Below, piece by piece: positions 1 to 17,941 of a stretch of 32,000 bases of DNA (positions within the stretch are counted from its first letter, which is position 1; every line of letters starts with the position of its first letter). The stretch is taken from contig JAMWCX010000001.1 of assembly GCA_023818895.1 (NCBI GenBank), positions 599,789 through 631,788 on the forward strand, written 5' to 3'. The notes under the pieces were generated by a model, which saw only the letters and a list, made by a program, of their open reading frames with translations, searched no databases and was not told the origin of the DNA. A program made the translations under genes and the position numbers. Source of the stretch: Candidatus Omnitrophota bacterium. Lineage in GTDB: Bacteria; Omnitrophota; Gorgyraeia; 2-01-FULL-45-10.

Positions 1-943
1 TGCCGGATTCCTTAACAATATCATGCAAACCGAAAGATTGCGATAGCTTCTCCACATCAGGTTTATCATAACCGAATACACACAAATAAAGTTCTATTTT
101 CCGCCTATCGATCTTCCCATGCGCAACTAAATCAGCGACCGCTTTGAAAAAAGGCTCAAGCGGCTGATGATCTTTATGAAGTTTGCCGGTATAACTTATT
201 GTAAACTTAGCATTTTTAGAAAAACCTATTCGCCCGAAATCCTCTTCGTCAAAACCATTTTCTATCACGCTGACCACGCCCCTATTATCTCTAAGCGACT
301 TCTTAAGCCGCTCAGCCCAAGGCTCAGAGACCGTGATAACGGAATCGGCATCCTTCAAGATGCTCTTCTCCATTATTCTCAAAGCGGCTTTTTTTATAAA
401 TGACCTGGGCCTGAAATGGTCCTCTGCCCAAAGATCGCGAAGATCAGCTACCCATGGCATTCCGGAAAGCGTTTTCAGTTTTCGCGCGACAAGATGGGCA
501 GTTTCGGGTGGAGATGTGCTGAATATCACATCAACGCGCTCCTGCTCAATTATCCTCTTACCCTCCTCCAAGGCAAGAGAGTACCAGCCTATTTGGTCAT
601 CAGGCATAGTCACCATTTCTCGCACAAACGAAACTCTTTTGGCCGGCTTTTTAGGACGCAAGTATGTCTTAAGCTCGCTATCGTCAGCGGTTGTAATTCT
701 TGACACGATGCGCTTGAGGCTTCCTATAACATCCTTATAATCGGTCCTGAAAACCTTGGTTCCGTTGAGCGCGTATTCCGATTCCGCATCACCGGCCAAA
801 GGCTTGCCCGCCTTAACGGTTAAAACAAGAGGACTCCACCCATACTCGGGCAGAAACTTCGCGAATTTGAAAGCCCTCATCGTTCCAACGCCTTCCATAG
901 GAGGCCATGCGTAAGATATCATCAACACTTTTTTTACGCTCAT
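1..943 (-). CDS. Glycosyltransferase, GT4 (group 1) family, N-terminal part; C-terminus lies beyond the left window edge
   Basis: Absent from the supplied ORF track because no stop codon falls inside the window. My manual reverse-complement translation from the ATG at 943..941 gives MSVKKVLMISYAWPPMEGVGTMRAFKFAKFLPEYGWSPLVLTVKAGKPLAGDAESEYALNGTKVFRTDYKDVIGSL... and stays open to position 2. The N-terminus has the GT4-like pattern of a hydrophobic strand, then P-x-x-G-G/V-G, then R and a helix. The start lies 4 nt after the stop of the upstream radical SAM gene. The + strand ORFs at 167-740 are antisense shadows of this gene. Confidence 0.75.
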   Translation of the reverse strand, partial: MSVKKVLMISYAWPPMEGVGTMRAFKFAKFLPEYGWSPLVLTVKAGKPLAGDAESEYALNGTKVFRTDYKDVIGSLKRIVSRITTADDSELKTYLRPKKPAKRVSFVREMVTMPDDQIGWYSLALEEGKRIIEQERVDVIFSTSPPETAHLVARKLKTLSGMPWVADLRDLWAEDHFRPRSFIKKAALRIMEKSILKDADSVITVSEPWAERLKKSLRDNRGVVSVIENGFDEEDFGRIGFSKNAKFTISYTGKLHKDHQPLEPFFKAVADLVAHGKIDRRKIELYLCVFGYDKPDVEKLSQSFGLHDIVKESG

Positions 944-947
944 AGAC

Positions 948-2018
948 CTAGATCAACACCCCTTTATTATCTGGACATACTCTGCATGGACCGGGAAGCT
1001 TTTCGGCGTCTGATGAGAGGAAGACGTTCCTCATGCGCCTGAAAAAAGCATTATTCCAAATCTCTTCATCGCGGTAGTTTCCATTGCCTTCCATATTTAA
1101 CAGCATCATAGAGCAACTGGAGATATTGCCATCCCCGTCAAACCGAACCTGCGAGAAGTGTGAAACGCACTTATTTTGACGCAACGTCTTATCTATAAGC
1201 GGCGGCAATGTGAATTTTCTCCGTACCAAAGGCGGATATGCGTTCATGATAGATCTAATTTCCCTTCTTATCTTTGGGTCGGCCATGAGAGAGCGCTCTT
1301 CAGCGGTCAGCCCTTCAACGGGACATGGCAGAAAATTACATAAGAAGGTATGGTCGACGCCCAGATTCAGGCTCGTTTGGATCATGTCTGGTATGTACTT
1401 ATAATTTTGCCTATCTACTATGAAAGACAACTTAACTTTAAGTGGCGAATTGCGCCTATTCCTCTCATCTACCAAATTCTTAATAGCTCGGTATATCTTG
1501 GCATAATAATTTTCATCCATACCTGTCATTCTATTGAATTCTTTAGCGTTATGGCCATTTATACTTATTGTTATCCCGTCTAATTTAGAATTTAAGATAT
1601 TGTCGAGATTATCCTCTATTGTAGTGCCGTTCGAGAAGGTCTTAACCGTCATATGACGCATCGCGGCATAGTCGACCATCTTAAAGAAGTTCTTATTAAG
1701 CATAGGTTCGCCGGAACCTATTATTTGCACATTCAACGCATTTTCAAAACGGTCTATGATCTCCTTGAACATGGCAAAATCCATGTCCCTGGTAGTCGTC
1801 TGGGCATGCTCGTAATCAGCTGGCACTCGTTTCGAGTGAGTTGGACACATATCGCACGAAAACGTGCAGCGTGAAGTCGCGACTATCGAGATGGTAACGG
1901 GATCATAGTCGAGAATCTCTTTCCGCGCTGACATTCTATACTTTAGGTAGTTGAACTTTTGCGAAAAGGTTAGATCTCGCATCAATACGCCCGCTATGTC
2001 TTTTACTTTATTCATCAT
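948..2018 (-). CDS. Radical SAM enzyme with C-terminal SPASM/twitch-like auxiliary cysteine region
   Basis: 356 aa. The CX3CX2C motif is present as SRCTFSCDMCPTH near the N-terminus. The C-terminal region contains C-x17-C with G-x4-C (DGDGNISSC), followed by PGPCRVCPDNKG (CX2C). The start ATG overlaps the AsnB stop as ATGA. Confidence 0.85.
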   Translation of the reverse strand: MMNKVKDIAGVLMRDLTFSQKFNYLKYRMSARKEILDYDPVTISIVATSRCTFSCDMCPTHSKRVPADYEHAQTTTRDMDFAMFKEIIDRFENALNVQIIGSGEPMLNKNFFKMVDYAAMRHMTVKTFSNGTTIEDNLDNILNSKLDGITISINGHNAKEFNRMTGMDENYYAKIYRAIKNLVDERNRRNSPLKVKLSFIVDRQNYKYIPDMIQTSLNLGVDHTFLCNFLPCPVEGLTAEERSLMADPKIRREIRSIMNAYPPLVRRKFTLPPLIDKTLRQNKCVSHFSQVRFDGDGNISSCSMMLLNMEGNGNYRDEEIWNNAFFRRMRNVFLSSDAEKLPGPCRVCPDNKGVLI

Positions 2019-3901
2019 GGCTTTTTGTCTATAAACTTTCTAAGCCAGAGTTCAAGATTTACCCAGCTCCATATTGTAAAATGGGCATCCGGCTCATACC
2101 CCTTTACAAAACGATCAAACTTTTCGAGTACTTGCTTTTGGTCAAAATAGGGACGCCTGGCAAACTCACTGGACGAAAGGAGTTCGAATACCTTACCTTT
2201 AAGATCGAATTTAAACCACCTTGCTAGAGGCGCGGCGAATCCCATCTTGTCGGTTCTGTTTCTGACTTCGGCCGGAAGAATATCTTTCAGGGATCGACGA
2301 AGAATGTATTTTGTCACGCCGTCCCTTATCTTGTACTCCGGCCCGATCGAGAACATGAATTCAACGATCCTGTAATCAAGAAACGGCGCGCGCGATTCTA
2401 CTGAATGCGCCATGCTTGAACGGTCGTCAACATGCAGAAGCGATGGAAGCGGCGATATCTTGAACGCGTTGTAGAGCTCGTTATTCAAGATACCTTTGAA
2501 CCTCTTCTCTGTCGATATTCTGTTAAAGCTGGCTGACGCGAAATCCTTGTTCAAATAGTCAGGTATGGCTTTACCCGCGCCGGCACCGACCAGCGCCTTG
2601 GCTCTTTCCGGCATCGTATAAGACAACATAATCCTCGCTACGGGAGCAGCTATTTTTCTAATGCCGTTTGTCTCCTTGTAAATTGTCATCTCTTTCTTTG
2701 CCTGAGCCCACTTACCGGAATAAATAAGATCAGCAAAAAGATATAGATAATACTTATTGTATCCCGCAAGTGTTTCATCACCGCCCTGACCCGTCAAGAG
2801 AACTTTAACGCCCTTTTCTTTTGCGAGTTTCATAACATACCACTGCGGGAAGATGCTGAGCGTGCTGTAAGGTTCATCCTGATGCCAGATAATATCTTCG
2901 ATATCGTCAAAAAGCCTTTCGGGCTTGGCGAATATGAAATTCGCGTGCGCTCCCGTTCTGTCCAGGACCGGCCGGATAAACCGCCTCTCGTCACACTCCT
3001 CTTCGGTATCAAAGCAGGATGAAAAAGCCTCAAGCCGAGATCCTTCCAACAGACGCGCTGCCACGCAGGCTATCGAAGATGAATCAAGCCCGCCGCTTAA
3101 GCTAACCCCAAGCGGAACATCGCTTCGCAGCCTCAGTCTTACGGAATCTTCAAAAAGCTCATAAAACCGGTGGAAGGCCTCTTCCTCATCTCTGAATCTC
3201 AGCCTTTTGGCAGGATCGGGGCTCCAGTATCTGACCTGCGTAAACTTCCCATTTTCAAGACTAAGTTTAGCATAGTGGCCGGCTTTCAACTGCCTGATAC
3301 CTTTGAAAAACGTCCTTTCTGATATATCGATATAACCGTAACCGGATGCCACGTAATTATATATCGTCTTATCATCAGGCTCCGCCTTGACTTGCGGATG
3401 GGCCAAGAGAGCCTTGATCTCGGATGCGAATATGAAAATATCCCTGTCAGAATAATAATAAAATGGCTTTACCCCAAACCTGTCCCTCGAGCAGAATATT
3501 TCGCGTTTCTTTGGATCGTATATGACGAAAGACCACATCCCATTAAAGCGGTTCAGGCAGTTAGTTCCCCACTTCTCATAGGCATGTAATATTACCTCTG
3601 TATCGCTCTTAGACTTAAACGTAAAACCGAGCCTAATAAGCTCATCACGAAGTTCGCGATAGTTATATATCTCACCATTATGCACTATAACAGCGCCTGA
3701 GGAGTCGCTTGTCATGGGCTGAGAGGCGTCTTTGGAAAGGTCTATAATAGAAAGCCTCGCGTGACCAAGCCCCACAGGACCGTCAACATACATGCCCGTA
3801 TCATCAGGCCCGCGATGGCGCTGAATATCTACCATTGCCCTTAACACAATTTCGGATGCTGGATATTTATTCAGATTTAACAAACCTGCTATTCCGCACA
3901 T
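2015..3901 (-). CDS. asnB: Asparagine synthase family glutamine-dependent amidotransferase (AsnB/WbpS-type)
   Basis: The track ORF runs 2015..4030, but the Ntn-glutaminase nucleophile requires the start at MCGIAGLL, whose ATG is at 3901..3899. That ATG overlaps the upstream TAA by 1 nt (TAATG). GATase-II motifs are present (HRGPDD, HARLSIID, NGEIYNY). The PP-loop SLSGGLDSS lies in the synthetase half. Confidence 0.9.
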   Translation of the reverse strand: MCGIAGLLNLNKYPASEIVLRAMVDIQRHRGPDDTGMYVDGPVGLGHARLSIIDLSKDASQPMTSDSSGAVIVHNGEIYNYRELRDELIRLGFTFKSKSDTEVILHAYEKWGTNCLNRFNGMWSFVIYDPKKREIFCSRDRFGVKPFYYYSDRDIFIFASEIKALLAHPQVKAEPDDKTIYNYVASGYGYIDISERTFFKGIRQLKAGHYAKLSLENGKFTQVRYWSPDPAKRLRFRDEEEAFHRFYELFEDSVRLRLRSDVPLGVSLSGGLDSSSIACVAARLLEGSRLEAFSSCFDTEEECDERRFIRPVLDRTGAHANFIFAKPERLFDDIEDIIWHQDEPYSTLSIFPQWYVMKLAKEKGVKVLLTGQGGDETLAGYNKYYLYLFADLIYSGKWAQAKKEMTIYKETNGIRKIAAPVARIMLSYTMPERAKALVGAGAGKAIPDYLNKDFASASFNRISTEKRFKGILNNELYNAFKISPLPSLLHVDDRSSMAHSVESRAPFLDYRIVEFMFSIGPEYKIRDGVTKYILRRSLKDILPAEVRNRTDKMGFAAPLARWFKFDLKGKVFELLSSSEFARRPYFDQKQVLEKFDRFVKGYEPDAHFTIWSWVNLELWLRKFIDKKP

Positions 3902-4848
3902 TACTTTTCGCTCTTCTTTCTTGCTATTATAAGCACATTCCGTCCGGTCAAGCCTCGCGCCCTGTCGTAGACCAGGCAAAAAGGCACCAGCGGTAGCACC
4001 ATCGCCCTTTTCAGCTGCCCTAGTATACACGTTAGATGACTTGCCTCGCTGCCGCTGCCGCCATCTTTCGCTGTCCCAGCTCGGTTTTTCTCGATCTTCG
4101 CGATAATTCCAAAACGCACCTTCTTTATCAGTGAGTTGACCGTACTCTTTACCGTCAGAGGCTCATAGAGGCGGACAATCACTTCAAATCCCGCCGCCTC
4201 CATAAGCTTGCGCAGGCTTCTGTTGTCCCACCAAGAGAGATGGTGAGGCGGCCTGTCCCACTCTTCCCGCGTCGAATAACATAGGGACTGACGGCTTTGG
4301 CTAGGCACGGATAAAACTAACAAGCCGTCTTTATTCATCATCTTCGCGGCGGCCCTGACAAACCCAAGGGGATCGCTCAGGTGCTCGACTATATGGAATG
4401 CACATACAGCGTCAAATTTCTCGCGGGGAAAATTCGCTGCAAATTGATCGAGGGTGCATTTATAGACTTTTTCGTCTCCGAGCCTCGCCTTAGCTATCCT
4501 TAAAGCGTTTTCATTGATATCAACGCCTATAGCGTCATGCCCCCTCTGTTTGGCGATATAAAGAAAGCGGCCATCGCCGCAGCCCGCCTCGAATATCCGT
4601 TTTTTACCGTGCAAGAAGCCCACGGCCTTACCGAACTCCCACCTGTCGATGTAGTAATCTTCGGGTGATATGTTCTGATATTCTTCATCGCTTAGAGGCC
4701 TCATCGGATCTGAGAACACAACTGAACACGACGGGCATTTATAAAGACTGTAGATCCGGCCGTTTTTGCCCTCATACGACTCTACATATTTTGAATCATC
4801 TTTTCCGCACAGGATACAATTCATACTATTTTGCCCCGCACTTATCAT
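3901..4848 (-). CDS. Class I SAM-dependent methyltransferase with N-terminal CxxC...CxxC zinc ribbon
   Basis: 315 aa. The N-terminus reads CILCG...CPSC. SAM-binding motif I is present as IFEAGCGDGRF, followed by an acidic loop GVDIN. ATGA overlaps occur at both ends of the gene. Confidence 0.85.
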   Translation of the reverse strand: MISAGQNSMNCILCGKDDSKYVESYEGKNGRIYSLYKCPSCSVVFSDPMRPLSDEEYQNISPEDYYIDRWEFGKAVGFLHGKKRIFEAGCGDGRFLYIAKQRGHDAIGVDINENALRIAKARLGDEKVYKCTLDQFAANFPREKFDAVCAFHIVEHLSDPLGFVRAAAKMMNKDGLLVLSVPSQSRQSLCYSTREEWDRPPHHLSWWDNRSLRKLMEAAGFEVIVRLYEPLTVKSTVNSLIKKVRFGIIAKIEKNRAGTAKDGGSGSEASHLTCILGQLKRAMVLPLVPFCLVYDRARGLTGRNVLIIARKKSEK

Positions 4849-5933
4849 GGTGTAGGATGTTTCGTTATATAATCTGCCAAGATCGCGGCAAATTTTTCAT
4901 TACCTTTTTTAGAAAAATGAACGTAGTCGTAAAAGCAGGAATCGTCGAAATCTTCATCCAGAACTTCAGCCACAAAATCCGCACCTTCTGCGGCACAAAC
5001 TTGTTTCATTTCATTGTTATACAATTTCATAGTAGCACCAAGATCTCTCATCTTGACATATGGTATCCAGAAAAAAACTTTGTCTCCTTCCATAGCATCC
5101 CTCGCCAACCTCTGTTCATTTATTATTTGGGGAACCATTATGGGCCGGATACCTTGGGCCCTGCATAGCGCTAAGATGAGTTTCAAATTACGAGCATATA
5201 AAAGGAGGGACCTCTTGTCCGGCTCGACAGTAAATTTCGAAGGTGTGCCTTCTATACTATAGCCGCCGTCTGGATCCTTAATTAGAAAGGTATTAACGAT
5301 TTTTCGCAGGAATCTCAATGTCGCTGATTTATTCCCAAATTTGAATAAATATAGTACAAGATTGTCATATTGTGAGCGGCCGTGAAAATCAGAATAATCC
5401 GGCTTAAGGCCTTTGACGTGCATATTGCGCATGTCATTCCAGCCTTCGTAATAAACACATATATCGGGTGAGATATCAGAAAGCCAAAGCGCCGTTTGAA
5501 TTAGATTCTCGACCGTCGTATAGCCGGGAACTCCCATATTGATAACTTCATACTTAGAGCCGAGTATTTTTTCCAGATAATATGGCCATGTCTGGTCATC
5601 GGAAACGCCTATGCAGTAGGTAGATGACCCGCCTAGTACAACCACCCTTACCCTGCCCTCATCCTTGGTTTGCCGAATCTCCGCGCCGCGCATCCCCAGA
5701 GAATTATTGGTAAAAGTTATCCCGTTCTTTGAGGTAAACGTTGCGCCAGGCTTCGGAACCCCGACAAGATAAGGATGTTTCTTGAATAAATAATGGTGTG
5801 GTTCCTCCTCGGCCAAAAACAACCATTTGTTTGCCGTTACCCTGTAGGCTATCTGACAGGTAATCTCGATGCCGATCAGAAGAACAGCTATGTACAGCAG
5901 TATCCCTAAAAAACGAAGGATGCCTTTTCTCAT
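4845..5933 (-). CDS. Membrane-anchored SGNH/GDSL-family hydrolase or acyltransferase (paralog 1 of 3)
   Basis: 362 aa. There is an N-terminal TM helix (ILRFLGILLYIAVLLIGIEITC). The SGNH blocks are VVVLGGSST (block I), NMGVPGYT (II), YEGWNDM (III) and DYVHFS (V, DxxH). It aligns by eye with the proteins at 7483 and 8603. Confidence 0.8.
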   Translation of the reverse strand: MRKGILRFLGILLYIAVLLIGIEITCQIAYRVTANKWLFLAEEEPHHYLFKKHPYLVGVPKPGATFTSKNGITFTNNSLGMRGAEIRQTKDEGRVRVVVLGGSSTYCIGVSDDQTWPYYLEKILGSKYEVINMGVPGYTTVENLIQTALWLSDISPDICVYYEGWNDMRNMHVKGLKPDYSDFHGRSQYDNLVLYLFKFGNKSATLRFLRKIVNTFLIKDPDGGYSIEGTPSKFTVEPDKRSLLLYARNLKLILALCRAQGIRPIMVPQIINEQRLARDAMEGDKVFFWIPYVKMRDLGATMKLYNNEMKQVCAAEGADFVAEVLDEDFDDSCFYDYVHFSKKGNEKFAAILADYITKHPTP

Positions 5934-7084
5934 CTATTATCCCTTAAAAACTCTCTTATCTTCTCAACGATATAATTCATTTCCGCTTTATCGAGCTCAG
6001 GATACACCGCAAATGAAAGGGTCTGCTCCGATGCCTTCTCCGACTCTTTCAGGTCGCCCTTCCTGTATCCAAGATTTCGATAGCACTCTTGCAGATGCAG
6101 CGGTACCGGATAGTATGTCCTAGCTTCGATGCCGCTTGAATTCAGGTACCTGGACAGCTCCTCCATCCGGTTTTTGAGTCTTATCACATAAAGATGGTAA
6201 GTATGGACATTGTATTCTGGGACGTAAGGGCATACTACTGGCAGATCCTTCAGCTTCTCATTATAATAGGCGGCGTTCTTCCGGCGGGCTTCGAGCCATC
6301 TGTCGAGATACCTGAGCTTAACGCGCAGGACCGCGGCCTGCAGGTTATCGAGTCTTGAGTTCATTCCTATCTCTGAGTGAATATACCTCTGGGCGCTGCC
6401 GTGCACCCTGAGCATCCTAATCCTATCCGCAACCTTTTTATCATTGGTGACCACCATGCCGGCATCACCGAAAGCCCCGAGGTTCTTCGACGGAAAGAAG
6501 CTGAGGCACCCTATGTCTCCCATGGATCCGGCCTTTCGGCCCTTGTAGGTAGCACCTATAGCCTGCGCGGCATCCTCTATGACTTTAAGCTTATGTTTCC
6601 TGGCAATCGACAATATCGGGTCCATGTCAGCGCACTGCCCGTAGAGATGAACCGGTATCACTGCCTTTGTTTTGCTGGTGATCGCCTTTTCGATAAGCGC
6701 GGGGTTTATGTTGTAGGTCTGCGGGTCTATATCTACGAAGATCGGTTTGGCGCCGACTATTGAAATAGCCTCAGCGGTGGCGAAAAAGGTAAACGGAGAA
6801 GTGATGACTTCGTCTCCGGTGCCTATCCCCAGCGCCTTCAGCGCCAATATGAGAGCATCTGTGCCCGAGGCAAGGCCGACACCGTATTTTGTGCCACAAT
6901 AAGCGGCCGTTTCGGCTTCAAACGCGCTAACATCCTCGCCGAGTATGAAATTCTGGTTATCTATAACGTTCTTTACGGACTTATCGACTTCGGACTTTAT
7001 GAACTGGTATTGCTTTTTAAGGTCCAATATCGAGACTTTCATAGAAGTCTTTTCTTTAGATACCTGGTTTGCGGACGTAACCAT
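5930..7084 (-). CDS. DegT/DnrJ/EryC1/StrS-family PLP-dependent nucleotide-sugar aminotransferase
   Basis: The family pattern is recognisable: LDLKKQY, FILGEDVSAFE, ASGTDALILAL, and the PLP-lysine context SFFPSKNLGAFGDAG. The track start at 7087 is TTG. The adjacent ATG at 7084 has a strong GGAGGGAG Shine-Dalgarno sequence upstream and overlaps the upstream TGA (TGATG). Confidence 0.9.
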   Translation of the reverse strand: MVTSANQVSKEKTSMKVSILDLKKQYQFIKSEVDKSVKNVIDNQNFILGEDVSAFEAETAAYCGTKYGVGLASGTDALILALKALGIGTGDEVITSPFTFFATAEAISIVGAKPIFVDIDPQTYNINPALIEKAITSKTKAVIPVHLYGQCADMDPILSIARKHKLKVIEDAAQAIGATYKGRKAGSMGDIGCLSFFPSKNLGAFGDAGMVVTNDKKVADRIRMLRVHGSAQRYIHSEIGMNSRLDNLQAAVLRVKLRYLDRWLEARRKNAAYYNEKLKDLPVVCPYVPEYNVHTYHLYVIRLKNRMEELSRYLNSSGIEARTYYPVPLHLQECYRNLGYRKGDLKESEKASEQTLSFAVYPELDKAEMNYIVEKIREFLRDNR

Positions 7085-7317
7085 CAAGCTCCCTCCCTCA
7101 TCCCGTTAAGAATGATACTGCGATGTTTGTTAAGTGACCTTTTTATATAACCTTTCTTTTCAAGGGCTAATAACTTATCAACCGCTGACTTATACGATTG
7201 AATGCTGCACCCTTCTTGTATTTCCCTTATATAAGGCGAGATAGAGTTCTTCTCTATGTATGCCTTGATATAGTCGTATACCTCTTTCTGCTTTTGGGTA
7301 AGCATGTACTTTTCCAT
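7084..7317 (-). CDS. Small winged-helix DNA-binding protein resembling the LexA N-terminal domain only (no S24 peptidase domain)
   Basis: 77 aa. LTQKQKEVYDYIKAYIEKNSISPYIREIQEGCSIQSYKSAVDKLLALEKKGYIKRS matches the LexA DNA-binding-domain pattern (LTxxQxxVxxxI...PxxREI...S...HLxxLxxKGxIxR). An AAGGAGAG Shine-Dalgarno sequence lies 8 nt upstream of the ATG. This is the first gene after the promoter. Confidence 0.7.
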   Translation of the reverse strand: MEKYMLTQKQKEVYDYIKAYIEKNSISPYIREIQEGCSIQSYKSAVDKLLALEKKGYIKRSLNKHRSIILNGMREGA

Positions 7318-7482: not shown

Positions 7483-8619
7483 CTACTGCTTGAGGCATTT
7501 GCTGCGCAGGGTTGCCTGATATAGAATTTTGCCAAATATCTCGTTACCTTTACGGTTGAAGTGATAATCATAATCATAATAGAGGGCTGAATCCGCATCA
7601 GGATATTCCCTAATAGAACTAACATCAACAAATTCTACGTCCTCTTCCGCGCAAAGGCTTCGTAAGATATTTGTGATTTCGGCGAGCCTATCCTTACCAC
7701 CTGAATAAAACCTTTTAGACGCAACATACCATTTATCGGGAACAAAGAAAAGAGCGGCCACCATGCCCTGCTTTCTCGCAAGACGTGAATACTCACCAAG
7801 ATTCTTTCGCAAGAACTCAAGAAGACGGATATCAGAGAACTCGTCATTAAGAGTGCAGGGAGTGTCGCAAGAGCTTATTAGCCCCAACTTGAGGGCCAGT
7901 TCTGAAAGCGTTTTGTTTCTTTTGACCTTATCAATTATGAAACCGTAACTTAAAAGATGGTAGCGAAGATAATCTTTAAGCTCTATGAAAAAATGCCTTT
8001 TTATCTTTTCCGCGGCTTTTATTTTCAGCCCCGGAAGCCCCATTTCAACAGCAGATTTAGCTAACCCCTCGTCTTCCAAGCTTTCCAAGATATCACCGCC
8101 ATGTAATCCCATCATTATCACATCCGCTTTATATATGCCGGCCAGTTCCTTCGCCAGCTCGATATAATCAACCAATGAATTAGCCGGGATACCGGCATTT
8201 ATGACCTCGTATTTACCTTCGCTGGCAAGTTCTTTTTCAAATACCTTGGGATAGGTCTGGTCATTTTCCACGCCGTGCCCGAAGGTAAAAGAATCTCCCA
8301 ATATTATGATGCGTTTTGTTTGCGGCGGCACATCAAAGGTAAAGTCCCTGTCACGGAACCCTTTACTGTTGGACTTTATGAGGTATGAAAACTCCCTTCC
8401 TTTCACACGGTATTGTCTGTTAGGCAAAAGCCTGTAGCCTTTTCCGCTCGGAGCGCGCGCAAATATATCTTTAGAAAGATATATAGTCCTTTTCTCATCG
8501 CGATGGACCCTGAAACGTAGATACAATTCCAGTCCTGTTAAAAATAAGGCCATGGAAAGTACGACAGAAGCAAGGAATGTTGCGATGGCGAAGATCGAAT
8601 TCTTACTCTTTGCTGCCAT
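7483..8619 (-). CDS. Membrane-anchored SGNH/GDSL-family protein (paralog 2 of 3)
   Basis: 378 aa. There is an N-terminal TM helix (IFAIATFLASVVLSMALFLTGL). Block I is the canonical IIILGDSFTFG and block II is NAGIPANS. Block III is divergent (MGLHGGD, no Asn). The C-terminal DYDYHF stands in place of DxxH. Confidence 0.75.
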   Translation of the reverse strand: MAAKSKNSIFAIATFLASVVLSMALFLTGLELYLRFRVHRDEKRTIYLSKDIFARAPSGKGYRLLPNRQYRVKGREFSYLIKSNSKGFRDRDFTFDVPPQTKRIIILGDSFTFGHGVENDQTYPKVFEKELASEGKYEVINAGIPANSLVDYIELAKELAGIYKADVIMMGLHGGDILESLEDEGLAKSAVEMGLPGLKIKAAEKIKRHFFIELKDYLRYHLLSYGFIIDKVKRNKTLSELALKLGLISSCDTPCTLNDEFSDIRLLEFLRKNLGEYSRLARKQGMVAALFFVPDKWYVASKRFYSGGKDRLAEITNILRSLCAEEDVEFVDVSSIREYPDADSALYYDYDYHFNRKGNEIFGKILYQATLRSKCLKQ

Positions 8620-9754
8620 ATAAGTTTTCTTTTGCGAAAGGAAAGCCTTTTATCGCCTCAAATATGGCCGAGGCGATTATCGCTTGCCCTCTATCGCCTA
8701 CATGGACAGCGTCAAAAAATATAGTATCGGGATAAGGATCATAAAGAGCCATAAAATCCAGGAAAGCGAACTTATCTGACTTGGCCATCTCAGCGAGGCG
8801 TTCCCTTGCGTTTATAAACATGGGTTTTACGATGGGCTGAAGAGCCGGCGGTTCTGAAGCCAGGATGTATTTTTCGTCCTCCGATGGATCTTTTTTAAAA
8901 TAAAGGTTTGGCTGCAGTATAACGACGGGCTCTATTCCTAAACCGCGCAGTATCCTTACCATCTTTCTTATGTTGCTAAGGTAGGCATCGACGCCCGCCG
9001 GATTTGAGGAGAGTTTATTAATAGATTCCGCCTTCCTTTTTTCTTCCAGCCTATTCATAATAAGCTTGGTAAGTCTAAAATTCTTCAATCGCTTGTTCAG
9101 GAAAAGCTTGGTCGGCGAAACCTTAAGGGCTTTTTCAATCATCTCAAACCGCCATGGATAGTTTGGCCGCCTGTCGTTTATTACAGAGCCGACTATGTCA
9201 TTGAATCCATCAAAGATTACCACCATATCCGGTTTAAGGTCGATAAGCTCGGTAACTATAAGAACGAGCTCCTGGGCAGAAATCGCCGAGGCAAGCCCGG
9301 CGTTTATCACCTCGAACTTTTTGTTCCTGGATTCGGTGTTTAGCAACTTCTCAAGAACTCTGGGAAATGCTGTTTCGTCGCTTGATGAACCGTATCCCAT
9401 CGCACCGCTTCCTCCGACAATGATTATCCTGAAGGTGCCTTCTGGCTTTTCTTTTGACACCTCAGCGCCGCGAAAACCGAAAGAATTTATATTGATCGTG
9501 TGCGAATGAAAATTCGGCTTCATGCGAAAAGCAAGATACGGAACGACCACAAGGTCTGTTGCAGCCCTATACTCAGCTATCTGCTGGGGTGAGAGCATTG
9601 CTGAGATGGCCTTATTTTCTTTGTTCTCCCTGGCTTTCTCCGCAATCTTTTCGAACACTTTAAGGCATCTGTCCAGAAGCATAAAGAACAGCACAACAAC
9701 AACGAACGCGAATAGTATCTTTTTGCTTAAGGTGAGGCTTTTCTTTTGCGTCAT
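8603..9754 (-). CDS. Membrane-anchored SGNH/GDSL-family protein (paralog 3 of 3)
   Basis: 383 aa. There is an N-terminal TM helix (ILFAFVVVVLFFMLL). The blocks are IIIVGGSGAMG (I), NAGLASA (II), FDGFNDI (III) and FDAVHVG (V, DxxH). A GGAGG Shine-Dalgarno sequence lies 8 nt upstream of the ATG. The gene overlaps the downstream paralog by 17 nt. Confidence 0.8.
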   Translation of the reverse strand: MTQKKSLTLSKKILFAFVVVVLFFMLLDRCLKVFEKIAEKARENKENKAISAMLSPQQIAEYRAATDLVVVPYLAFRMKPNFHSHTININSFGFRGAEVSKEKPEGTFRIIIVGGSGAMGYGSSSDETAFPRVLEKLLNTESRNKKFEVINAGLASAISAQELVLIVTELIDLKPDMVVIFDGFNDIVGSVINDRRPNYPWRFEMIEKALKVSPTKLFLNKRLKNFRLTKLIMNRLEEKRKAESINKLSSNPAGVDAYLSNIRKMVRILRGLGIEPVVILQPNLYFKKDPSEDEKYILASEPPALQPIVKPMFINARERLAEMAKSDKFAFLDFMALYDPYPDTIFFDAVHVGDRGQAIIASAIFEAIKGFPFAKENLYGSKE

Positions 9755-9759
9755 GCCGG

Positions 9760-10593
9760 CTACCTCCAGAACGGAAGCGGTTTGTTGAAACGAGGCGAGG
9801 CCGGGAAACCCATGAGGGCAGCTCGGGTCCGCAAGGTAAGATAACGCGCCAACCGCCCTATTCCCTCTTTCCCGCTCAAACCGATACCGCCTTTAAGCTC
9901 TTTCCACATCGTTTTTGCCCGCTCTCCGACTATAACGCGCGAAGAATCCATGGTTGGGCGCGATGCCGTCATACTGGTCCTGCGCACCCGTACGATGGCA
10001 AGCTCCTCATCGAGGCAGAGGAAACGACGACCCGCAAACGCCAGTTTAAGAAAAAAATCCCAATCCTCATGGCTCTCAAGCGATGTGTCAAACCTCAGGC
10101 TGTCAAGACAGACGCGCCGCAAAATTACCGTTGAAACATGTATAAAATTACTTCTCTTCAAGAAAAACAAAAGGTCTCCGGAAAGCCGGGCATATGTGGA
10201 AGGAAAAGTCTCTTCTTTCTTGCCGTCGTAAAAATACCGCCAGCCGCTATAAATAACATCATAACCAGGATGTTTTTGGAACGCTCGCACTTGTCGCTCT
10301 ATCTTGTCCGGCAAAAACATATCGTCCGCGTCAAGAAAAGCTATGTACTCGCCTGTCGCCTCTTCCAACCCTCTGTTGCGACTGGCTGGAAGCCCCGCGT
10401 GTCTCTGTATTATACATCTTAACTTACCTTCTCCGCTGTAACGCTCTAAGACTCCTGAAGTTTCGTCTGTAGAACCATCATCGATGATGATAATCTCGAT
10501 ATCTCCAAAGGTCTGCGACAAAACACTATCAACAGCCTCCGCGATATAGTGGGCGCAGTTATATGTTGGTATTATGACGCTCACCGCCGGCAT
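9760..10593 (-). CDS. Glycosyltransferase family 2
   Basis: 277 aa. The sequence VSVIIPTYNCAHYIAEAVDSVLSQTFGDIEIIIIDDGSTDET together with the DADD motif (FLDADDMF) is the classic GT-A/GT2 signature. The start overlaps the upstream stop (TGATG). Confidence 0.9.
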   Translation of the reverse strand: MPAVSVIIPTYNCAHYIAEAVDSVLSQTFGDIEIIIIDDGSTDETSGVLERYSGEGKLRCIIQRHAGLPASRNRGLEEATGEYIAFLDADDMFLPDKIERQVRAFQKHPGYDVIYSGWRYFYDGKKEETFPSTYARLSGDLLFFLKRSNFIHVSTVILRRVCLDSLRFDTSLESHEDWDFFLKLAFAGRRFLCLDEELAIVRVRRTSMTASRPTMDSSRVIVGERAKTMWKELKGGIGLSGKEGIGRLARYLTLRTRAALMGFPASPRFNKPLPFWR

Positions 10594-12002
10594 CAGATAC
10601 GCCCTTCCTTTATCATCCTAAGCAGGTCCAGTTTATGTCTTCCTGGATACCTGCCTACCAAATCCCTGAACATACGCAGGAATCGCCTGTTATGCCTGTT
10701 AAACAACGCCTTATCCATCCGCTCCATGATCTTCGTTCTTAACGGCAGCTTCCGAGACTCAGCAACAGCGGTTTTGAGGAACGCATAATCGACGCCTTTT
10801 ATCTTCGGCTTGTCCTCTTCCGGTATAGGCACGACGTCCTCATGGTCGTCGATAAGCGAAAGGTTCTTCTCCTTGCAGTAATCATATAAATAGCTTCCCG
10901 GATGAGGAGTGAAGAAAGCGGCGCTCGCCCTGTACGGCTTTATCTTCTTTATCATCCTCACCGTATCCCACGCCTCAGCGTTCGTTTCCGTCGGAAGGCC
11001 GAGCATGTAATTGGCAAATATCCTGATGCCGTTTGAGTGGCATATCCTAGCGGCTTCAAGGTTCTGTTTTAATGTGACTCCCTTTGATATAAACCTAAGG
11101 ACTCGATCATTGCCGCTTTCAAACCCTATCTGGGCCATCCTAAGGCCAACATGGGCAAGCTTACGTATCATATCAGGGTGCCTGCAGATGATGTCAGCCC
11201 GCGTCTGGCATATGAAGGGCAGCCTAAAACCGGCTTGCCTGTAGGCATCGCAAAACTCCATAACCCATTTTTCGTCCTCCGTAAAGCAGTCGTCATGGAA
11301 CATGAAACTTTTCATTCCGTAAATATTCTCAAGTTCTTTAAGCTCCGCCATGACAGAGGCTATGCTCCTGCGTCTAGAACCCTTGCCATGAACCATCTTG
11401 CTTGCAGGGGCGCAGAATCGGCAGTTATAACTGCAGCCACGTCCGGCCATGATGGTGAAAAAAGGCATCGGCATGAAGAAATCCCACGGGGACTCAAGAC
11501 AGTCAAAAAGATACCTGTCGATATAGGGAAGCTCGTCCATCGGCATTTGCTCGCCAAAGATAACTTTCTGGGCCTTCTTACCGCTTTTTATACTCTCCAA
11601 GAGAGATACAAAGGCCTTTTCCCCCTCGCAACGTACTATGTAGTCAATCTTGGGATTAGACGTAAGTTCTTCTGGGGCTATTGTGGGATGAATACCCCCT
11701 ACTATGATAACGGCCCGTGGATTTACTTCTTTTATTATATCAACCGCCTTAATCGCATAAGGAAAATCTGGGCTCATGATGGTAATAGCGGCTACCTCGA
11801 TCTTTTTTGATTCGACCTCGCGGCGGAAATGATCCCATCCGCTCAGTATGCTTAAGTCTATTAACTCTGTCGCAAAACCTGCCATCTTTGCACAGGCTGA
11901 TAGATAGCAAAGGCCATGGTGGATGTTCCTGAGCAGTGTTTCCCCGCTGGATGCCTTAAAGCCAGATAGCGCTATGGAAGGATAGATGAAAGTTACTTTC
12001 AT
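10593..12002 (-). CDS. B12-binding-domain radical SAM enzyme (class B-like)
   Basis: 469 aa. The N-terminal part is Rossmann-like and cobalamin-binding-like (VAAITIMSP...AVIIVGGIHPT). It is followed by the radical SAM motif GRGCSYNCRFC (CX3CX2C). Confidence 0.85.
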   Translation of the reverse strand: MKVTFIYPSIALSGFKASSGETLLRNIHHGLCYLSACAKMAGFATELIDLSILSGWDHFRREVESKKIEVAAITIMSPDFPYAIKAVDIIKEVNPRAVIIVGGIHPTIAPEELTSNPKIDYIVRCEGEKAFVSLLESIKSGKKAQKVIFGEQMPMDELPYIDRYLFDCLESPWDFFMPMPFFTIMAGRGCSYNCRFCAPASKMVHGKGSRRRSIASVMAELKELENIYGMKSFMFHDDCFTEDEKWVMEFCDAYRQAGFRLPFICQTRADIICRHPDMIRKLAHVGLRMAQIGFESGNDRVLRFISKGVTLKQNLEAARICHSNGIRIFANYMLGLPTETNAEAWDTVRMIKKIKPYRASAAFFTPHPGSYLYDYCKEKNLSLIDDHEDVVPIPEEDKPKIKGVDYAFLKTAVAESRKLPLRTKIMERMDKALFNRHNRRFLRMFRDLVGRYPGRHKLDLLRMIKEGRI

Positions 12003-12006
12003 GTCT

Positions 12007-12948
12007 TTATCTGACGGCTGACCTGAAGTATGCTATAGTCCGGTTAAGACCAGACTCGAGGGCAACTTTTGGAGCCCACTTAAGAGCCTTTTTGGCCATA
12101 GAAATATCGGGGCATCTGACCTTAGGATCGTCAACGGGCAGTTCCTTAAATATGACTTTGCTTTTGGAACCTGATATCCTTATCACCGTCCTAGCCAATC
12201 CCAAAAGCGTCATCTCGTGCGGATTTCCGATATTGACCGGTTCAGTAATACCGGAATTTATAAGTTTATATATTCCATCCACCATGTCTGATATATAACA
12301 GAAACTTCTTGTCTGCCTGCCAGTTCCATAAACGGTAATGGGGCGATTCTTAAGCGCCTGACTTATGAAATTAGGTATAGCCCTGCCGTCATGCTCACGC
12401 ATCCGAGGGCCATATGTGTTAAATATACGCACTATCCGCGTATCAACCTTGTGGTAGCGATGATAGGCCATCGTCATAGCCTCGGCAAAACGTTTCGCCT
12501 CATCATAAACGCCGCGGGGGCCTATAGGGTTAACGTTGCCCCAGTAACTTTCAGGCTGAGGATTGACTAGAGGGTCGCCATAGACTTCGCTTGTTGAGGC
12601 AAGAAGGAACGTGGCTTTCTTCTTCATGGCAAGGCCAAGGGCGTTATGAGTCCCTAACGACCCTACCTTGAGCGTCTGTATGGGGTATTTCAGATAATCG
12701 GCGGGGCTTGCGGGCGATGCAAAGTGAAGTATATAGTCAAGACCACATTTTATGTCTATGTACTTGGTTACATTATGCTCCAAGAACTCGAAATTCTTAT
12801 TTTTAAGATTATGGGCAATGTTCTCTATCTTGCCTGTTATAAGGTTATCCATGCAGATAACCTTGCACCCTTTTTCTAGAAAAAGGTCGCAGAGATGAGA
12901 ACCTATAAAGCCGGCGCCGCCGGTAATCAAAACGGTTTTTTCGCGCAT
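12007..12948 (-). CDS. uxs: UDP-glucuronate decarboxylase (UDP-xylose synthase)
   Basis: There is strong by-eye similarity to UXS1-type SDR enzymes: [60 protein letters not shown] and [10 protein letters not shown]. The track start is 12966. I prefer the ATG at 12948 (MREKTV...), which has an AGGAG sequence 6 nt upstream. Confidence 0.9.
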
Positions 12949-13913
12949 CGCCTGCTCCTGAACCATTCAACCGTACGCTCCAGTCCCTCGGTAAAACCGA
13001 CTGTCTTTTTCATCTTAAGGAGCCTTCTCATTTTGCTCACATCGGCGCGAGTTTTTCGGACGTCGCCCTTCCTCTTTGGCGCGAAAACAGGCTTTATATC
13101 TGTTCCAAGTATCCTGTTTAGTTCCTTTACTATGTCGATAATCGATATCGTGGAGCCACATGCCACATTGAATACCTCGCCCGATATACCAGGCATAACA
13201 CATGCCCTAAGGTTCGCCTCAACCACATTACCCACATACGTAAAGTCCCTTGACTGTCTCCCATCCCATTCAACGATGGGGCTTTTGCCCTCCATCATTC
13301 TGAATAAAAAAGCTGGTATTACAGCGGAGTATTTGGATTCGGGGTTCTGTCGCGGGCCGAAGACATTGAAATATCTAAGCGAGACCGTCTCCAGGCCGAA
13401 CGTCTTCGCAAAAGTAATGCAATAGTTCTCCGCGGCGAGCTTAGATACGCCGTAAGGAGATATTGGCTTGGGCAGATCTGTTTCCCTCTGAGGAAAGCTT
13501 TTGGCGTCGCCATAAGCAGAACTCGATGAGGCGTAGACGACCCTCTTAACGCCGGCCTTCTTCGCCGCCATCAAAAGATTCAATGTCCCAAAAACATTTA
13601 TGTCATTTGTAGTAAAAGGGTCTTCAACCGATTTCGGGACGGAACGCAAAGCGGCCTGGTGTATCACATAATCAATCCCTTTCATTGCCCTGGCCAGCGT
13701 TTTAGCGCTCCGGATATCGCCCTTTATAAATTCCACTTGCCCAAGGAAAGGCTTAAGATTCTCCAGCTTGCCGGTAATCAGATTGTCGATAACTCTGACC
13801 CTATTGACCTTAAGAGCAATTCCATTTTCTGACAGATCTTTCTTTCTTACAAGCTCCTCGACAATATTTGAACCTATAAAGCCGGCGCCGCCGGTAACAA
13901 GATAGTTTGCCAT
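12927..13913 (-). CDS. NAD-dependent nucleotide-sugar 4-epimerase, WbpP/TviC-like
   Basis: 328 aa. Motifs shared with WbpP/TviC as I recall them are [63 protein letters not shown] and [12 protein letters not shown]. Confidence 0.8.
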
Positions 13914-13916
13914 AAG

Positions 13917-15221
13917 TTATAGCCTGATTATGTTCTTTCTTTCTTTAATGCCTTTAAGCACGTTGCGTGTATCTATTATGAGCTTCGAATTGGCAACAAT
14001 TGTATCGTAATCTACGCTGCTGTGGTCTGTGACTATCAGCACGCAATCTGAATTTTTGAAGGTATCCGCAGAAAATTTGGCGCAGGTAAGATTTATATTG
14101 TTTATCTTCAAGTATGGAAACAGGGGGTCATAGTAAGAAACATGCGATCCTTTCCGCATCAGTATATCAATCACTTCCAATGCCGGCGATTCTCTAAGAT
14201 CTTTCACATCTTTTTTATATGCCACCCCAACGACGATTACCTTCGAGCCTTTGAGCGCTTTTCCGCGATCATTAAGGCCTTCGATCACTTTTGTGATCAC
14301 GTAATGCGGCATCTGCGAATTCACGTAAGACGCCAAGTCAATAAAACGCGCCTCGAAACCATGCACCCTCGCCTTCCACGAAAGATATATCGGGTCAACC
14401 GGTATGCAGTGACCTCCGACACCCGGGCCGGGATAGAACGGCATGAATCCGTAAGGTTTGGTCTTCGCGGCGTCTATGACTTCCCAGACATCTACGCCAA
14501 GCCTGTCACACATGAGCATTATCTCGTTTACAAGACCGATATTGACGATCCGGAACGTATTCTCAAGGAGCTTCACCATCTCAGCGACTTTCGCCGATGA
14601 TACAGGCACTATCGTATCTATCGCCTGTTCATAAAGAAGCTTGGCGATCTCCGTTGAATGAGCGGATATCCCTCCTATTATCTTCGGCGTATTCTTGGTA
14701 TCATACTTTGGATTGCCGGGATCGACCCTTTCGGGCGAGAAAGCCAGATAAAAATCCCTCCCCTCCTTCATGCCGTCTTTCTCGAGTATGGGAAGCATCA
14801 CCTCCTCTGTTGTTCCTGGATACGTTGTTGATTCGAGAACGACGATCTGGCCGCGCTTCATGTGCCGCTTGATATTTTTTACGGCGGATACGATATAGGA
14901 GACATCGGGTTCTCTTGTTTTGTGTAGCGGCGTGGGCACGCATATGATAACAGCGTCGAGGCTTTTTATCACGCTAAAATCGGTGGTTACCCAAAGTGAT
15001 TTCGACCTTTTGACAAGGGCTATATCCGATTTTGGCACATCGAGTATATATGATTCGCCCCTTTTTATCCTCTTCACACGATCCTCATCGATATCTATGC
15101 CCCACACATGAAACCCGCTTTTGGCAAACGTGATCGCAAGCGGAAGCCCTACATAACCAAGTCCTATAATACCTATTCTTGCCTTTTTGCTTGATATCTT
15201 TTTCTTTAGTTCACTTATCAT
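13917..15221 (-). CDS. Nucleotide-sugar 6-dehydrogenase, UDP-GlcNAc (WbpO/TviB) or UDP-ManNAc (WecC) dehydrogenase family
   Basis: 434 aa. The N-terminal NAD fold reads ARIGIIGLGYVGLPLAITFA. A catalytic-Cys context is present (GPGVGGHCIPVDP). It lies directly upstream of the WbpP/TviC-like epimerase, as in the wbpO-wbpP and tviB-tviC pairs. Confidence 0.85.
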   Translation of the reverse strand: MISELKKKISSKKARIGIIGLGYVGLPLAITFAKSGFHVWGIDIDEDRVKRIKRGESYILDVPKSDIALVKRSKSLWVTTDFSVIKSLDAVIICVPTPLHKTREPDVSYIVSAVKNIKRHMKRGQIVVLESTTYPGTTEEVMLPILEKDGMKEGRDFYLAFSPERVDPGNPKYDTKNTPKIIGGISAHSTEIAKLLYEQAIDTIVPVSSAKVAEMVKLLENTFRIVNIGLVNEIMLMCDRLGVDVWEVIDAAKTKPYGFMPFYPGPGVGGHCIPVDPIYLSWKARVHGFEARFIDLASYVNSQMPHYVITKVIEGLNDRGKALKGSKVIVVGVAYKKDVKDLRESPALEVIDILMRKGSHVSYYDPLFPYLKINNINLTCAKFSADTFKNSDCVLIVTDHSSVDYDTIVANSKLIIDTRNVLKGIKERKNIIRL

Positions 15222-17108: not shown

Positions 17109-17113
17109 AGCTC

Positions 17114-17209
17114 AAATCCAAAAATCAAAATCCAAAAATCAAAATCATAGACAAATATCCCAAGTTTTTAATTTTAGGTTGTCGTTTTAATGCTTTGATT
17201 TTTGGATTT
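17114..17209. repeat. 14-bp unit in tandem (2.4 copies) plus a perfect inverted copy, bridging the rmlA 3' end and the rmlB start
   Basis: The unit aaatccaaaaatca occurs at 17114-17127 and again at 17128-17141, with a partial aaatca at 17142-17147. Its exact reverse complement tgatttttggattt is at 17196-17209, inside the last codons of rmlA (encoding KSKNQ). The tandem copies end 6 nt upstream of the rmlB ATG at 17108. Confidence 0.8.
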
Positions 17210-17938: not shown

Positions 17939-17941
17939 ATG

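Follow-up and report, generated by a model that had tools for sequence, protein, structure and literature searches.

A predicted twitch-type radical SAM enzyme encoded between AsnB-type amidotransferase and GT4-like glycosyltransferase genes in an Omnitrophota glycan locus

The twitch enzyme gene and its product

A gene at 948..2018 on the minus strand of a 32,000-nucleotide stretch of Candidatus Omnitrophota DNA (the window) encodes a 356-aa twitch-type radical S-adenosylmethionine (SAM) enzyme, as recognized from its open reading frame (ORF), Pfam, its homologues and an AlphaFold2 model. The second ATG of the gene, at 2015, is an alternative start that yields 355 aa. All genes from 19683 down to position 1 lie on the minus strand and are tightly packed. 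They encode, in this order, Ugd, a short RmlC-like cupin, RmlA, RmlB, RmlD, a WecC/TviB-like dehydrogenase, a TviC-like 4-epimerase, a second short-chain dehydrogenase/reductase (SDR), a B12-binding radical SAM enzyme, a GT2 glycosyltransferase, two SGNH/GDSL proteins, a 77-aa winged-helix protein, a DegT aminotransferase, a third SGNH protein, a methyltransferase, an AsnB-type amidotransferase, the twitch enzyme and a GT4-like glycosyltransferase.

The start codon of the radical SAM gene (ATG, 2018-2016) overlaps the AsnB stop codon (TGA, 2017-2015) in an ATGA, and its own stop codon (TAG, 950-948) is followed by a 4-nt gap, GTCT, and by the ATG of the GT4-like gene at 943. An earlier note, made from the sequence of this stretch, had described both the ATGA coupling to AsnB and the 4-nt gap to the glycosyltransferase gene, and both are seen, at 2015-2018 and between 948 and 943. 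The homologue and cluster matches described below indicate that the gene is real and under selection.

Pfam Radical_SAM matches the protein with 59.8 bits (E 5e-16; gathering cutoff 29.5). The cysteine motifs read by the earlier note are all present, namely CX3CX2C as C51-TFS-C55-DM-C58, C284-x17-C302 with G297-NISS-C302 (G-x4-C) and C345-RV-C348. The first of these, C51-T-F-S-C55-D-M57-C58, encoded at 1845..1868 on the minus strand, holds the predicted ligands of the SAM-binding [4Fe-4S] cluster, as judged from sequence and conservation. Conservation was read from alignments of 33 close homologues and of 90 full-length representatives down to 22% identity. C51, C55, C58 and M57 are invariant in the close homologues; M57 fills a position that is usually aromatic, and Met is found there in 44/90 of the wider relatives. 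The SAM-binding GGEP-type motif (G101-S-G103-E104-P105) is invariant in the close clade.

An AlphaFold2 model built on the 33-sequence alignment (mean pLDDT 93.6, pTM 0.91) contains six strand-helix units of a partial TIM barrel, then a helical linker and a C-terminal module. The N-terminus forms two short helices without a Pfam match. All Foldseek matches of the model at E<=1e-7 are radical SAM enzymes. The protein thus has the CX3CX2C motif, the above-cutoff profile score, the GGEP-type motif and, in the model, the partial (beta/alpha)6 barrel of the radical SAM superfamily (PF04055).

The C-terminal module corresponds to a twitch domain at residues 284-348 (975..1169, minus strand), recognized by conservation, Pfam SPASM and model topology, in which C284, C302, C345 and C348 are the predicted ligands of one auxiliary [4Fe-4S] cluster. 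Pfam SPASM (PF13186) aligns to residues 284-349 over its whole model with 20.6 bits, 0.9 bit below the cutoff of 21.5, and is matched by 58/90 family representatives (best E 4.8e-18). The four cysteines are invariant in the close homologues; among the wider representatives, C284, C345 and C348 are invariant and C302 is kept in 89/90. In the model, a beta-hairpin (290-293/298-300) lies between C284 and C302, followed by a helix (324-334) and C345-x2-C348, and the protein ends 8 residues past C348. When the isolated twitch region was compared with sequences of solved structures, no match was obtained at E<=10.

Twitch domains are defined by three or four conserved cysteines and a beta-hairpin plus helix, without the second CX2CX5CX3C...C set (PMC9477430, PMC9012708). 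The cysteine count, the hairpin and helix and the absence of a second cysteine set all agree with this definition. No CX5CX3C follows the CX2C in the window protein, and only four conserved cysteines occur after residue 280. A full SPASM domain, with two auxiliary clusters and seven or eight C-terminal cysteines, is thereby ruled out. The choice of twitch over full SPASM in the earlier note is borne out by the four invariant C-terminal cysteines, the chain end 8 residues after the CX2C and the hairpin-plus-helix in the predicted structure. Its count of four extra cysteines holds for the family-conserved residues (284, 302, 345 and 348). The protein has six cysteines outside the CX3CX2C motif in total, as C227 and C232 had been overlooked. 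Because all four ligands are invariant, the auxiliary cluster should be fully Cys-ligated as in BtrN, not open-sited as in MoaA. Together, sequence and predicted fold describe a putative SAM-cleaving enzyme with one fully ligated auxiliary cluster.

Gene neighborhood and residue 227

Gene synteny was assessed by tblastn with the window proteins against 17 genome loci with relatives of at least 35% identity and five loci from an exact-protein look-up. Fifteen distinct loci, most of them from one phylum, carry a radical SAM enzyme with Cys at position 227. These enzymes show only 41-63% identity, and the labels of the loci are Omnitrophota, Planctomycetia, Nitrospinae and Sericytochromatia. Within 6 kb, 14 of the 15 loci have an AsnB orthologue (40-68% identity), the exception being a 3-kb contig; of five relatives without Cys227, only one has AsnB. 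Immediately downstream and on the same strand, a GT4-like gene follows in 12/12 evaluable Cys227 loci and in 0/5 non-Cys loci. Of the 12 Cys227 loci that extend far enough upstream, 10 have DegT, for the most part directly ahead of AsnB. At 41-49% radical SAM identity, the cassette is still found in metagenome-assembled genomes with the labels Nitrospinae and Sericytochromatia, and likewise in a divergent clade (L008/L084, L011 and L083). Having Cys227, an upstream AsnB gene and, on the same strand, a GT4-like gene after it, the window belongs to this cassette clade, as do 12/12 evaluable related loci.

The genes around the cassette are largely of glycan assembly. Flippases (Polysacc_synt), initiating transferases (Bac_transf, Glycos_transf_4) and further glycosyltransferases flank it in L080, L082, L084 and L085, and methyltransferases lie near it in the same four loci. 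In L001, L009 and L080, genes for the dehydrogenase, the 4-epimerase and the second SDR are found upstream of DegT, as in the window. Every cassette locus except L083 has one to three B12-radical-SAM genes interleaved. DegT is absent within 10 kb of the cassette in L083 and L084. The cassette, probably co-transcribed, is co-inherited inside Wzx-type glycan loci. One of them, L082, also encodes a 902-aa fusion of a B12-binding radical SAM enzyme with a GT1-family glycosyltransferase (16896-19604, plus strand), a hint at physical coupling between glycosyl transfer and radical chemistry in these pathways.

Cys227 (1338..1340, minus strand) is a candidate hydrogen-atom donor on predicted strand beta-6 (F-L-C-N-F-L-P), based on clade conservation and the model. 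The strand spans residues 223-228, with Cys227 near its end. Cys227 is present in 31/33 close homologues; C232 is not conserved. In the wider family, position 227 is occupied by His in 20, by Asn in 11 and by Leu, Asp or Gln in 9 each of the 90 relatives, making it the most variable polar position of the family, and the neighboring Asn228 is kept in 74/90. Every cassette locus has Cys at this position, and the 5 relatives without a GT4-like gene have Y, I, L, V or Q. Such a pattern would be expected of an active-site residue that determines the chemistry, and Cys227 and the cassette together probably delimit an isofunctional clade. Cys227 is the most informative residue for choosing among oxidation, epimerization and C-C bond formation.

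The AsnB-type glutamine-dependent amidotransferase (2015..3904, minus strand) begins with MCGIAG, has its Cys2 nucleophile intact and scores 487.9 bits against TIGR01536 (cutoff 267), with Pfam GATase_7 and Asn_synthase. Its longest ORF (2015-4030, minus strand) starts at a GTG at 4030, which would give a 130-nt overlap with the methyltransferase gene; translation almost certainly begins at the ATG at 3904, with a 4-nt overlap with the methyltransferase stop. The GT4-like glycosyltransferase (1..943, minus strand; Pfam Glyco_transf_4 and Glyco_trans_4_4) is cut by the window end at residue 314. Its full-length relatives have 350-446 aa, and only the N-terminal domain is strongly recognized. 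The class I SAM methyltransferase (3901..4848, minus strand; Methyltransf_23, 91 bits) carries an N-terminal CxxC...CxxC ribbon, a zinc-ribbon-like segment. A PADLOC "mad2" match of this protein (61 bits) is probably a generic methyltransferase-domain similarity.

Upstream of these, the DegT/DnrJ/EryC1 sugar aminotransferase (5930..7087, minus strand) matches Pfam with 433.6 bits, and its best NCBIfam models are C4 aminotransferases (PseC, WecE, LegC, ArnB). The sub-operon running from DegT through the radical SAM gene to GT4 is headed by the gene for the 77-aa LexA-DNA-binding-like winged-helix protein (7084..7317, minus strand), identified as an ORF and through PF01726 on the L082 copy, which overlaps the start of the DegT ORF. 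The winged-helix protein is 82-88% identical upstream of DegT in L001, L082 and L080, where the flanking enzymes are 61-68% identical. A consensus scan gave promoter-like sites at 19777-19748 before Ugd and at 7413-7385 (TTGACA-17-TAATAT) before the winged-helix gene. This weakly suggests that the winged-helix gene through DegT, AsnB and the radical SAM gene to the GT4-like gene form one transcription unit, and the winged-helix protein may be a dedicated regulator of the cassette.

Further upstream, on the minus strand, Pfam and NCBIfam identify the second SDR (12007-12966), which resembles 4,6-dehydratases, UXS and ArnA, the TviC-like 4-epimerase (12927-13913) and the WecC/TviB-like UDP-N-acetylhexosamine 6-dehydrogenase (13917-15221). 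The B12-binding radical SAM enzyme (10593..12002, minus strand), assigned by Pfam, has HpnJ as its nearest NCBIfam model (149.9 bits); HpnJ belongs to the same network cluster as Fom3 and MoeK5. Homologues 45-48% identical to the window B12-radical-SAM enzyme occur in Anaerolineae operons (L026, L030, L045, L071 and others).

Three SGNH/GDSL paralogues of about 370 aa (4845-5933, 7483-8619 and 8603-9754, minus strand) each have an N-terminal hydrophobic segment and show weak similarity to two Leptospira families, LA_2486 and LA_2490; they may act on the glycan as O-acyl transferases or esterases. Directly upstream of the glycan locus, a 727-aa protein (19823-22006, minus strand) has an LptD N-terminal/LptA-like domain and weak similarity to CT351, a chlamydial outer-membrane barrel, which is consistent with a lipopolysaccharide-linked glycan. 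A tandem pair of GGDEF diguanylate cyclase genes, one with GAF, lies at 22644-25480 (minus strand), upstream of transaldolase and the LptD-like genes. Scanning the window for Rfam families and tRNAs gave no match.

Homologues, curated families and known enzymes

A search of 5.8 billion proteins at E<=1e-3 found 128 homologues. The best 120 of 128 are 40-71% identical and nearly all metagenomic, and those among them with an organism name are all Omnitrophota, Nitrospinae or Sericytochromatia. For the host itself, the DnaJ encoded in the window has 70-83% identity to its best homologues, of which all those with an organism name belong to Omnitrophota metagenome-assembled genomes. An exhaustive profile search of 1.84 billion representatives of clusters at 50% identity matched 258 clusters at E<=1e-30, rising to 9,429 at E<=1e-10. 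Six members, P0219, P0224, P0230, P0232, P0245 and P0266 (and P0246 partly), have lost all three CX3CX2C cysteines (Y/G/F, H/T/H etc.) and retain the four twitch cysteines, N23 and R330; they are probably pseudo-radical-SAM proteins that would keep the auxiliary cluster only. Four giant proteins, P0191 (1927 aa), P0208 (1953 aa), P0207 (1431 aa) and P0233 (1444 aa), have three or four separate family-profile stretches each and look like several radical SAM modules fused together.

Relatives of 21-28% identity in Anaerolineae are encoded in all-radical-SAM arrays with glycan genes absent nearby. In L045, which was examined with Pfam, seven consecutive radical SAM genes comprise five of the B12 type and two with SPASM domains, and no glycan, lipid or peptide genes were recognizable by Pfam near this array. 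These arrays were rejected as a functional clue, as they lack glycan genes and 21-28% identity is too distant for function transfer. The same locus (Ca. Amarolinea aalborgensis) carries an RtcB RNA ligase gene (2937-6109, plus strand) with an apparent intein, seen as an Intein_splicing domain within a 750-aa ORF.

The window protein appears to belong to no characterized or curated family, as judged from sequence profiles. All 48 of its NCBIfam matches are far below cutoff, the best being the tungsten-cofactor maturase model W_rSAM_matur (99.7 bits vs 380). Others such as rSAM_Geo_metal and mycofactocin MftC cover the radical SAM core only, and none of the 90 relatives has a strong NCBIfam match (best E 2.8e-41). 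The earlier note had taken tight clustering with a peptide-modifying or sulfatase-maturase clade, together with a cognate substrate gene nearby, as what would speak against a sugar substrate. Models of peptide, sulfatase and cofactor maturases all stay far below cutoff, and the window holds no RRE, no sulfatase and, where short ORFs were listed, no precursor-like ORF.

Several known enzyme types were considered and rejected. An anaerobic sulfatase-maturating enzyme (anSME) would have seven or eight of these cysteines, not four; no anSME model is among the listed NCBIfam matches, and no sulfatase domain occurs in the 27 window proteins scanned. A maturase acting on ribosomally made, post-translationally modified peptides (RiPPs) is excluded by the absence of an RRE/PqqD domain and by the low scores of maturase models. 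The sole small ORF in the 396-nt gap, where a RiPP precursor was sought, encodes the DNA-binding protein, and no peptide-like ORF was found where short ORFs were listed. MoaA (GTP 3',8-cyclase) is excluded by a TIGR02666 score of 47.8 bits vs 284, the absence of Mob_synth_C (PF06463) and four auxiliary cysteines instead of three. Prokaryotic viperin (pVip) reaches 52 bits vs 180 with NF038283 and 57.8 bits in PADLOC, the latter confined to profile positions 2-151 of 257; such generic similarity of the core does not sustain an antiviral defense reading.

When searched as a single sequence against PDB sequences, the protein matched only SkfB (E 0.0099). With a profile, MoaA was best (E 6e-7), followed by NifB, GDGT-MAS, BlsE (1.4e-4) and DesII (1.8e-4). 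Foldseek against PDB ranked DesII first (E 3e-15, TM 0.58-0.65) and BlsE second among distinct proteins (1.7e-12), and then SuiB, SkfB, viperins, MoaA, PqqE, BtrN and anSME. DesII and BlsE represent, within the PDB, the radical SAM enzymes of sugar nucleotides and sugar nucleosides; their ranking in these model comparisons is a lead rather than a placement. The sugar substrate that the earlier note had deduced from one locus gains support from synteny over the 15 distinct loci in several phyla and from DesII and BlsE as top structural matches.

In presumed function, the closest likeness is to the few twitch and related radical SAM enzymes of antibiotic pathways that modify carbohydrates (BtrN, HygY, NeoN, BlsE and DesII), although by sequence the protein is a member of none of those compared. 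The 2-deoxy-scyllo-inosamine dehydrogenase BtrN of the butirosin pathway, the archetype of twitch enzymes, resembles the window protein in having a radical SAM core and a truncated SPASM domain with one four-Cys auxiliary [4Fe-4S] cluster (PMC9012708). A non-significant profile match (E 0.25) places residues 310-352 against BtrN 197-237, with C345/C348 opposite BtrN 232/235. The BtrN ligands, which we take to be Cys169/187/232/235, are spaced almost equally to the x17, x42 and x2 of the window protein. The substrate of BtrN is carbohydrate-like, and its partner enzyme is a DegT-family aminotransferase. BtrN is a fold-level relative only (13% identity, Foldseek E 1.9e-9), and a BtrN-type dehydrogenase is rejected by sequence, since the profile match covers only the C-terminal 43 residues and TMq is 0.37. 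Compared with BtrN, the window protein is ~100 residues longer; at its N-terminus it carries a conserved extension of two helices (Q20/N23), it has Cys227 and a linker of 55 residues ahead of the twitch, and it is encoded in a primary envelope-glycan locus, not an aminoglycoside cluster.

In BlsE, of the blasticidin S pathway, the cluster motif CxxxCxMC was flagged as unusual by its authors (PMC3715490); the window protein has the same motif. BlsE and DesII (desosamine), the top two distinct structural matches, have nucleoside- or nucleotide-linked sugars as substrates (a hexuronic acid in the case of BlsE), and in both pathways the radical step is coupled to a pyridoxal phosphate-dependent aminotransferase. 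They differ from the window protein in sequence, with 15-16% identity, TM ~0.6 and profile E ~1e-4 over parts of the core; the window family has its invariant four-Cys twitch module.

Radical SAM epimerases are a further comparison, by description and not by sequence. In NeoN (neomycin), Cys249 is the hydrogen donor (PMC10991966). HygY (hygromycin B), by its description a twitch-type epimerase of the radical SAM superfamily, is turned into a dehydrogenase by mutation of a single Cys (PMC10991966 with its reference CR3). The likeness lies in the proposed mechanism, abstraction by the 5'-deoxyadenosyl radical and hydrogen return from an active-site Cys, for which Cys227 would be the analog in the window clade. 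The substrates of HygY and NeoN differ in being free pseudo-oligosaccharide antibiotics.

Enzyme sets resembling the neighboring AsnB, B12-radical-SAM enzyme, UDP-HexNAc dehydrogenase and 4-epimerase are known from the WbpS-type amidotransferases and GalNAcA-amide of Pseudomonas aeruginosa O6 and from the C-methyl uronamide of moenomycin (MoeF5 and MoeK5). Neither system is known to include a twitch radical SAM enzyme; the resemblance concerns the partners and not the enzyme itself. MoeK5 is a cobalamin radical SAM methylase (PMC9204698). Our literature survey found no description of a radical SAM enzyme of this family, nor of any twitch enzyme in an envelope-glycan cassette, and no characterized radical SAM enzyme for O-antigen, capsule or nucleotide-sugar pathways or with a linkage to AsnB. 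The novelty lies in the clade, its partners and its biological setting; its fold and general chemistry have precedents.

Possible role in envelope-glycan synthesis

The gene context and motifs make it likely that the enzyme has a sugar-tailoring role in an envelope-glycan pathway. For its chemistry, an epimerase mechanism dependent on Cys227 is favored, because position 227 is variable in the family yet Cys precisely in the cassette clade, and we regard this as plausible at somewhat less than an even chance. A fuller scenario can be offered tentatively, in which the cassette would make and install an undescribed envelope sugar, an amidated 2-acetamido-(amino)-hexuronic acid, by radical epimerization at an unactivated carbon, with residue 227 as a natural chemistry switch.

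The pathway would start from UDP-GlcNAc, which would be converted to the uronic acid by the 6-dehydrogenase and then 4-epimerized; in most loci, the uronic acid would be 4-aminated through the SDR and DegT. AsnB would turn the C6 carboxylate into a carboxamide. The substrate of the twitch enzyme would be a nucleotide-linked (or lipid-linked) 2-acetamido-hexuronic acid derivative, from which the 5'-deoxyadenosyl radical would take a hydrogen at an unactivated ring carbon. The Cys227 thiol would then give a hydrogen to the opposite face, resulting in the epimer, and the auxiliary cluster would re-reduce the thiyl radical. The dedicated GT4-like enzyme would transfer the product. The DegT-less cassettes in L083 and L084 imply that the radical SAM product does not obligatorily depend on the aminotransferase, and an epimerase, having no need for a follow-up enzyme, would fit these two loci.

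A number of observations weigh against epimerization in such a pathway. DesII, BlsE and BtrN make or use keto or amino sugars beside aminotransferase steps, and DegT in 10/12 evaluable cassette loci favors formation of a keto sugar. By Foldseek TM-score, DesII and BlsE (0.58-0.65) do not surpass SuiB, a peptide enzyme (0.59-0.63). The placement of Cys227 relative to SAM derives only from its position on strand beta-6 and from alignments to MoaA, NifB and GDGT-MAS, and as the loci are mostly from one phylum, the counts for synteny do not represent independent events. For auxiliary clusters with Cys at every ligand position, two-electron oxidations such as that of BtrN are the best-documented setting (PMC9012708).

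The enzyme could instead form a keto sugar by taking a hydrogen from a carbinol carbon, either as a BtrN-like dehydrogenase passing the electron to the auxiliary cluster or as a BlsE/DesII-like 1,2-diol dehydratase or deaminase expelling the adjacent hydroxyl or amine. The product, a keto or deoxy-keto hexuronic sugar, would be transaminated by DegT and amidated by AsnB. The co-operonic DegT gene of the window and of most cassette loci, usually directly upstream of AsnB, agrees with this, as do L082, L003 and L004, which show no SDR beside DegT able to supply a keto sugar. DesII and BlsE as top structural matches and the CxxxCxMC motif common to BlsE point the same way. By the title of a paper cited in PMC10267522 (ref 54), BlsE carries out a 1,2-diol dehydration on a hexuronic-acid nucleoside, and for the two-electron oxidation by BtrN, its four-Cys auxiliary cluster has been proposed as electron acceptor (PMC9012708). 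The DegT-less cassettes of L083 and L084 do not fit keto-sugar formation, and the window, L001, L009 and L080 already hold, just upstream of DegT, an SDR (4,6-dehydratase/UXS/ArnA-like) that could make the keto sugar. It also leaves the clade-specific Cys227 without a role, and the sequence relation to BtrN, DesII and BlsE is marginal (E 0.25 to 1e-4). We consider keto-sugar formation possible, though rather doubtful.

It is unlikely, more so than a keto sugar, that the enzyme performs some other radical chemistry with its B12-radical-SAM neighbors, such as C-C bond formation, synthesis of a higher-carbon or branched sugar, ring rearrangement or service as an electron-transfer or helper subunit for cobalamin methylases. 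One to three B12-radical-SAM genes do flank it in nearly all cassette loci, and its Anaerolineae relatives lie in arrays of five B12-radical-SAM and two SPASM genes in which one gene per array is 45-48% identical to the window B12-radical-SAM enzyme. The CX3CX2C-less members that keep the twitch cysteines hint at a cluster-only role in some paralogues, and sugar-acting cobalamin radical SAM C-methylases are known in GenK, GenD1 and MoeK5 (PMC9204698). Nevertheless, L083 has the radical SAM, GT4-like and AsnB genes with no B12-radical-SAM gene, the B12-radical-SAM gene of the window is 8.5 kb away in an apparently separate transcription unit, and the window protein keeps every SAM-binding motif.

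Very improbable is a peptide or protein maturase, a cofactor maturase of the MoaA or tungsten-cofactor type or a viperin-like enzyme for which the glycan location would be coincidental. The SPASM/twitch subgroup is dominated by peptide maturases, and the best NCBIfam scores (W_rSAM_matur, rSAM_Geo_metal, MftC), the best PDB profile match (MoaA) and the PADLOC pVip match would lead in this direction, as would the lasso-peptide cyclases among AsnB homologues (NF033535, 421.9 bits). Yet all of these scores are far below cutoff, including the lasso cyclase model (422 vs 525), and those of the radical SAM protein cover its core only. No RRE/PqqD or Mob_synth_C domain is found, no sulfatase occurs in the 32-kb window, and the sole nearby small ORF is the winged-helix DNA-binding protein. 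AsnB keeps the Cys2 glutaminase nucleophile, which lasso cyclases lack, and the neighbors are glycan genes in every locus examined for this point.

Uncharacterized radical SAM enzymes are very common, and to our knowledge the characterized carbohydrate-acting ones come almost entirely from antibiotic pathways (BtrN, DesII, BlsE, NeoN, HygY, GenK). The compact conserved cassette and the single-residue hypothesis make this an unusually testable system, as the adjacent dehydrogenase, epimerase and AsnB could provide the substrate and the adjacent glycosyltransferase a readout of the product. In practical terms, the findings offer a better rule for annotating the ~258 clusters (50% identity), and new sugar-editing biocatalysts might come from this family. 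If epimerization by Cys227 is correct, the enzyme would, as a radical SAM epimerase, be the first in the primary biosynthesis of cell-envelope glycans, and position 227 (Cys vs His, Asp or a hydrophobic residue) would switch between epimerase and dehydrogenase or dehydratase across these clusters. With this family, sugar radical chemistry would enter the ordinary assembly of envelope glycans in phyla such as Omnitrophota and Nitrospinota, which are uncultivated and mostly anaerobic.

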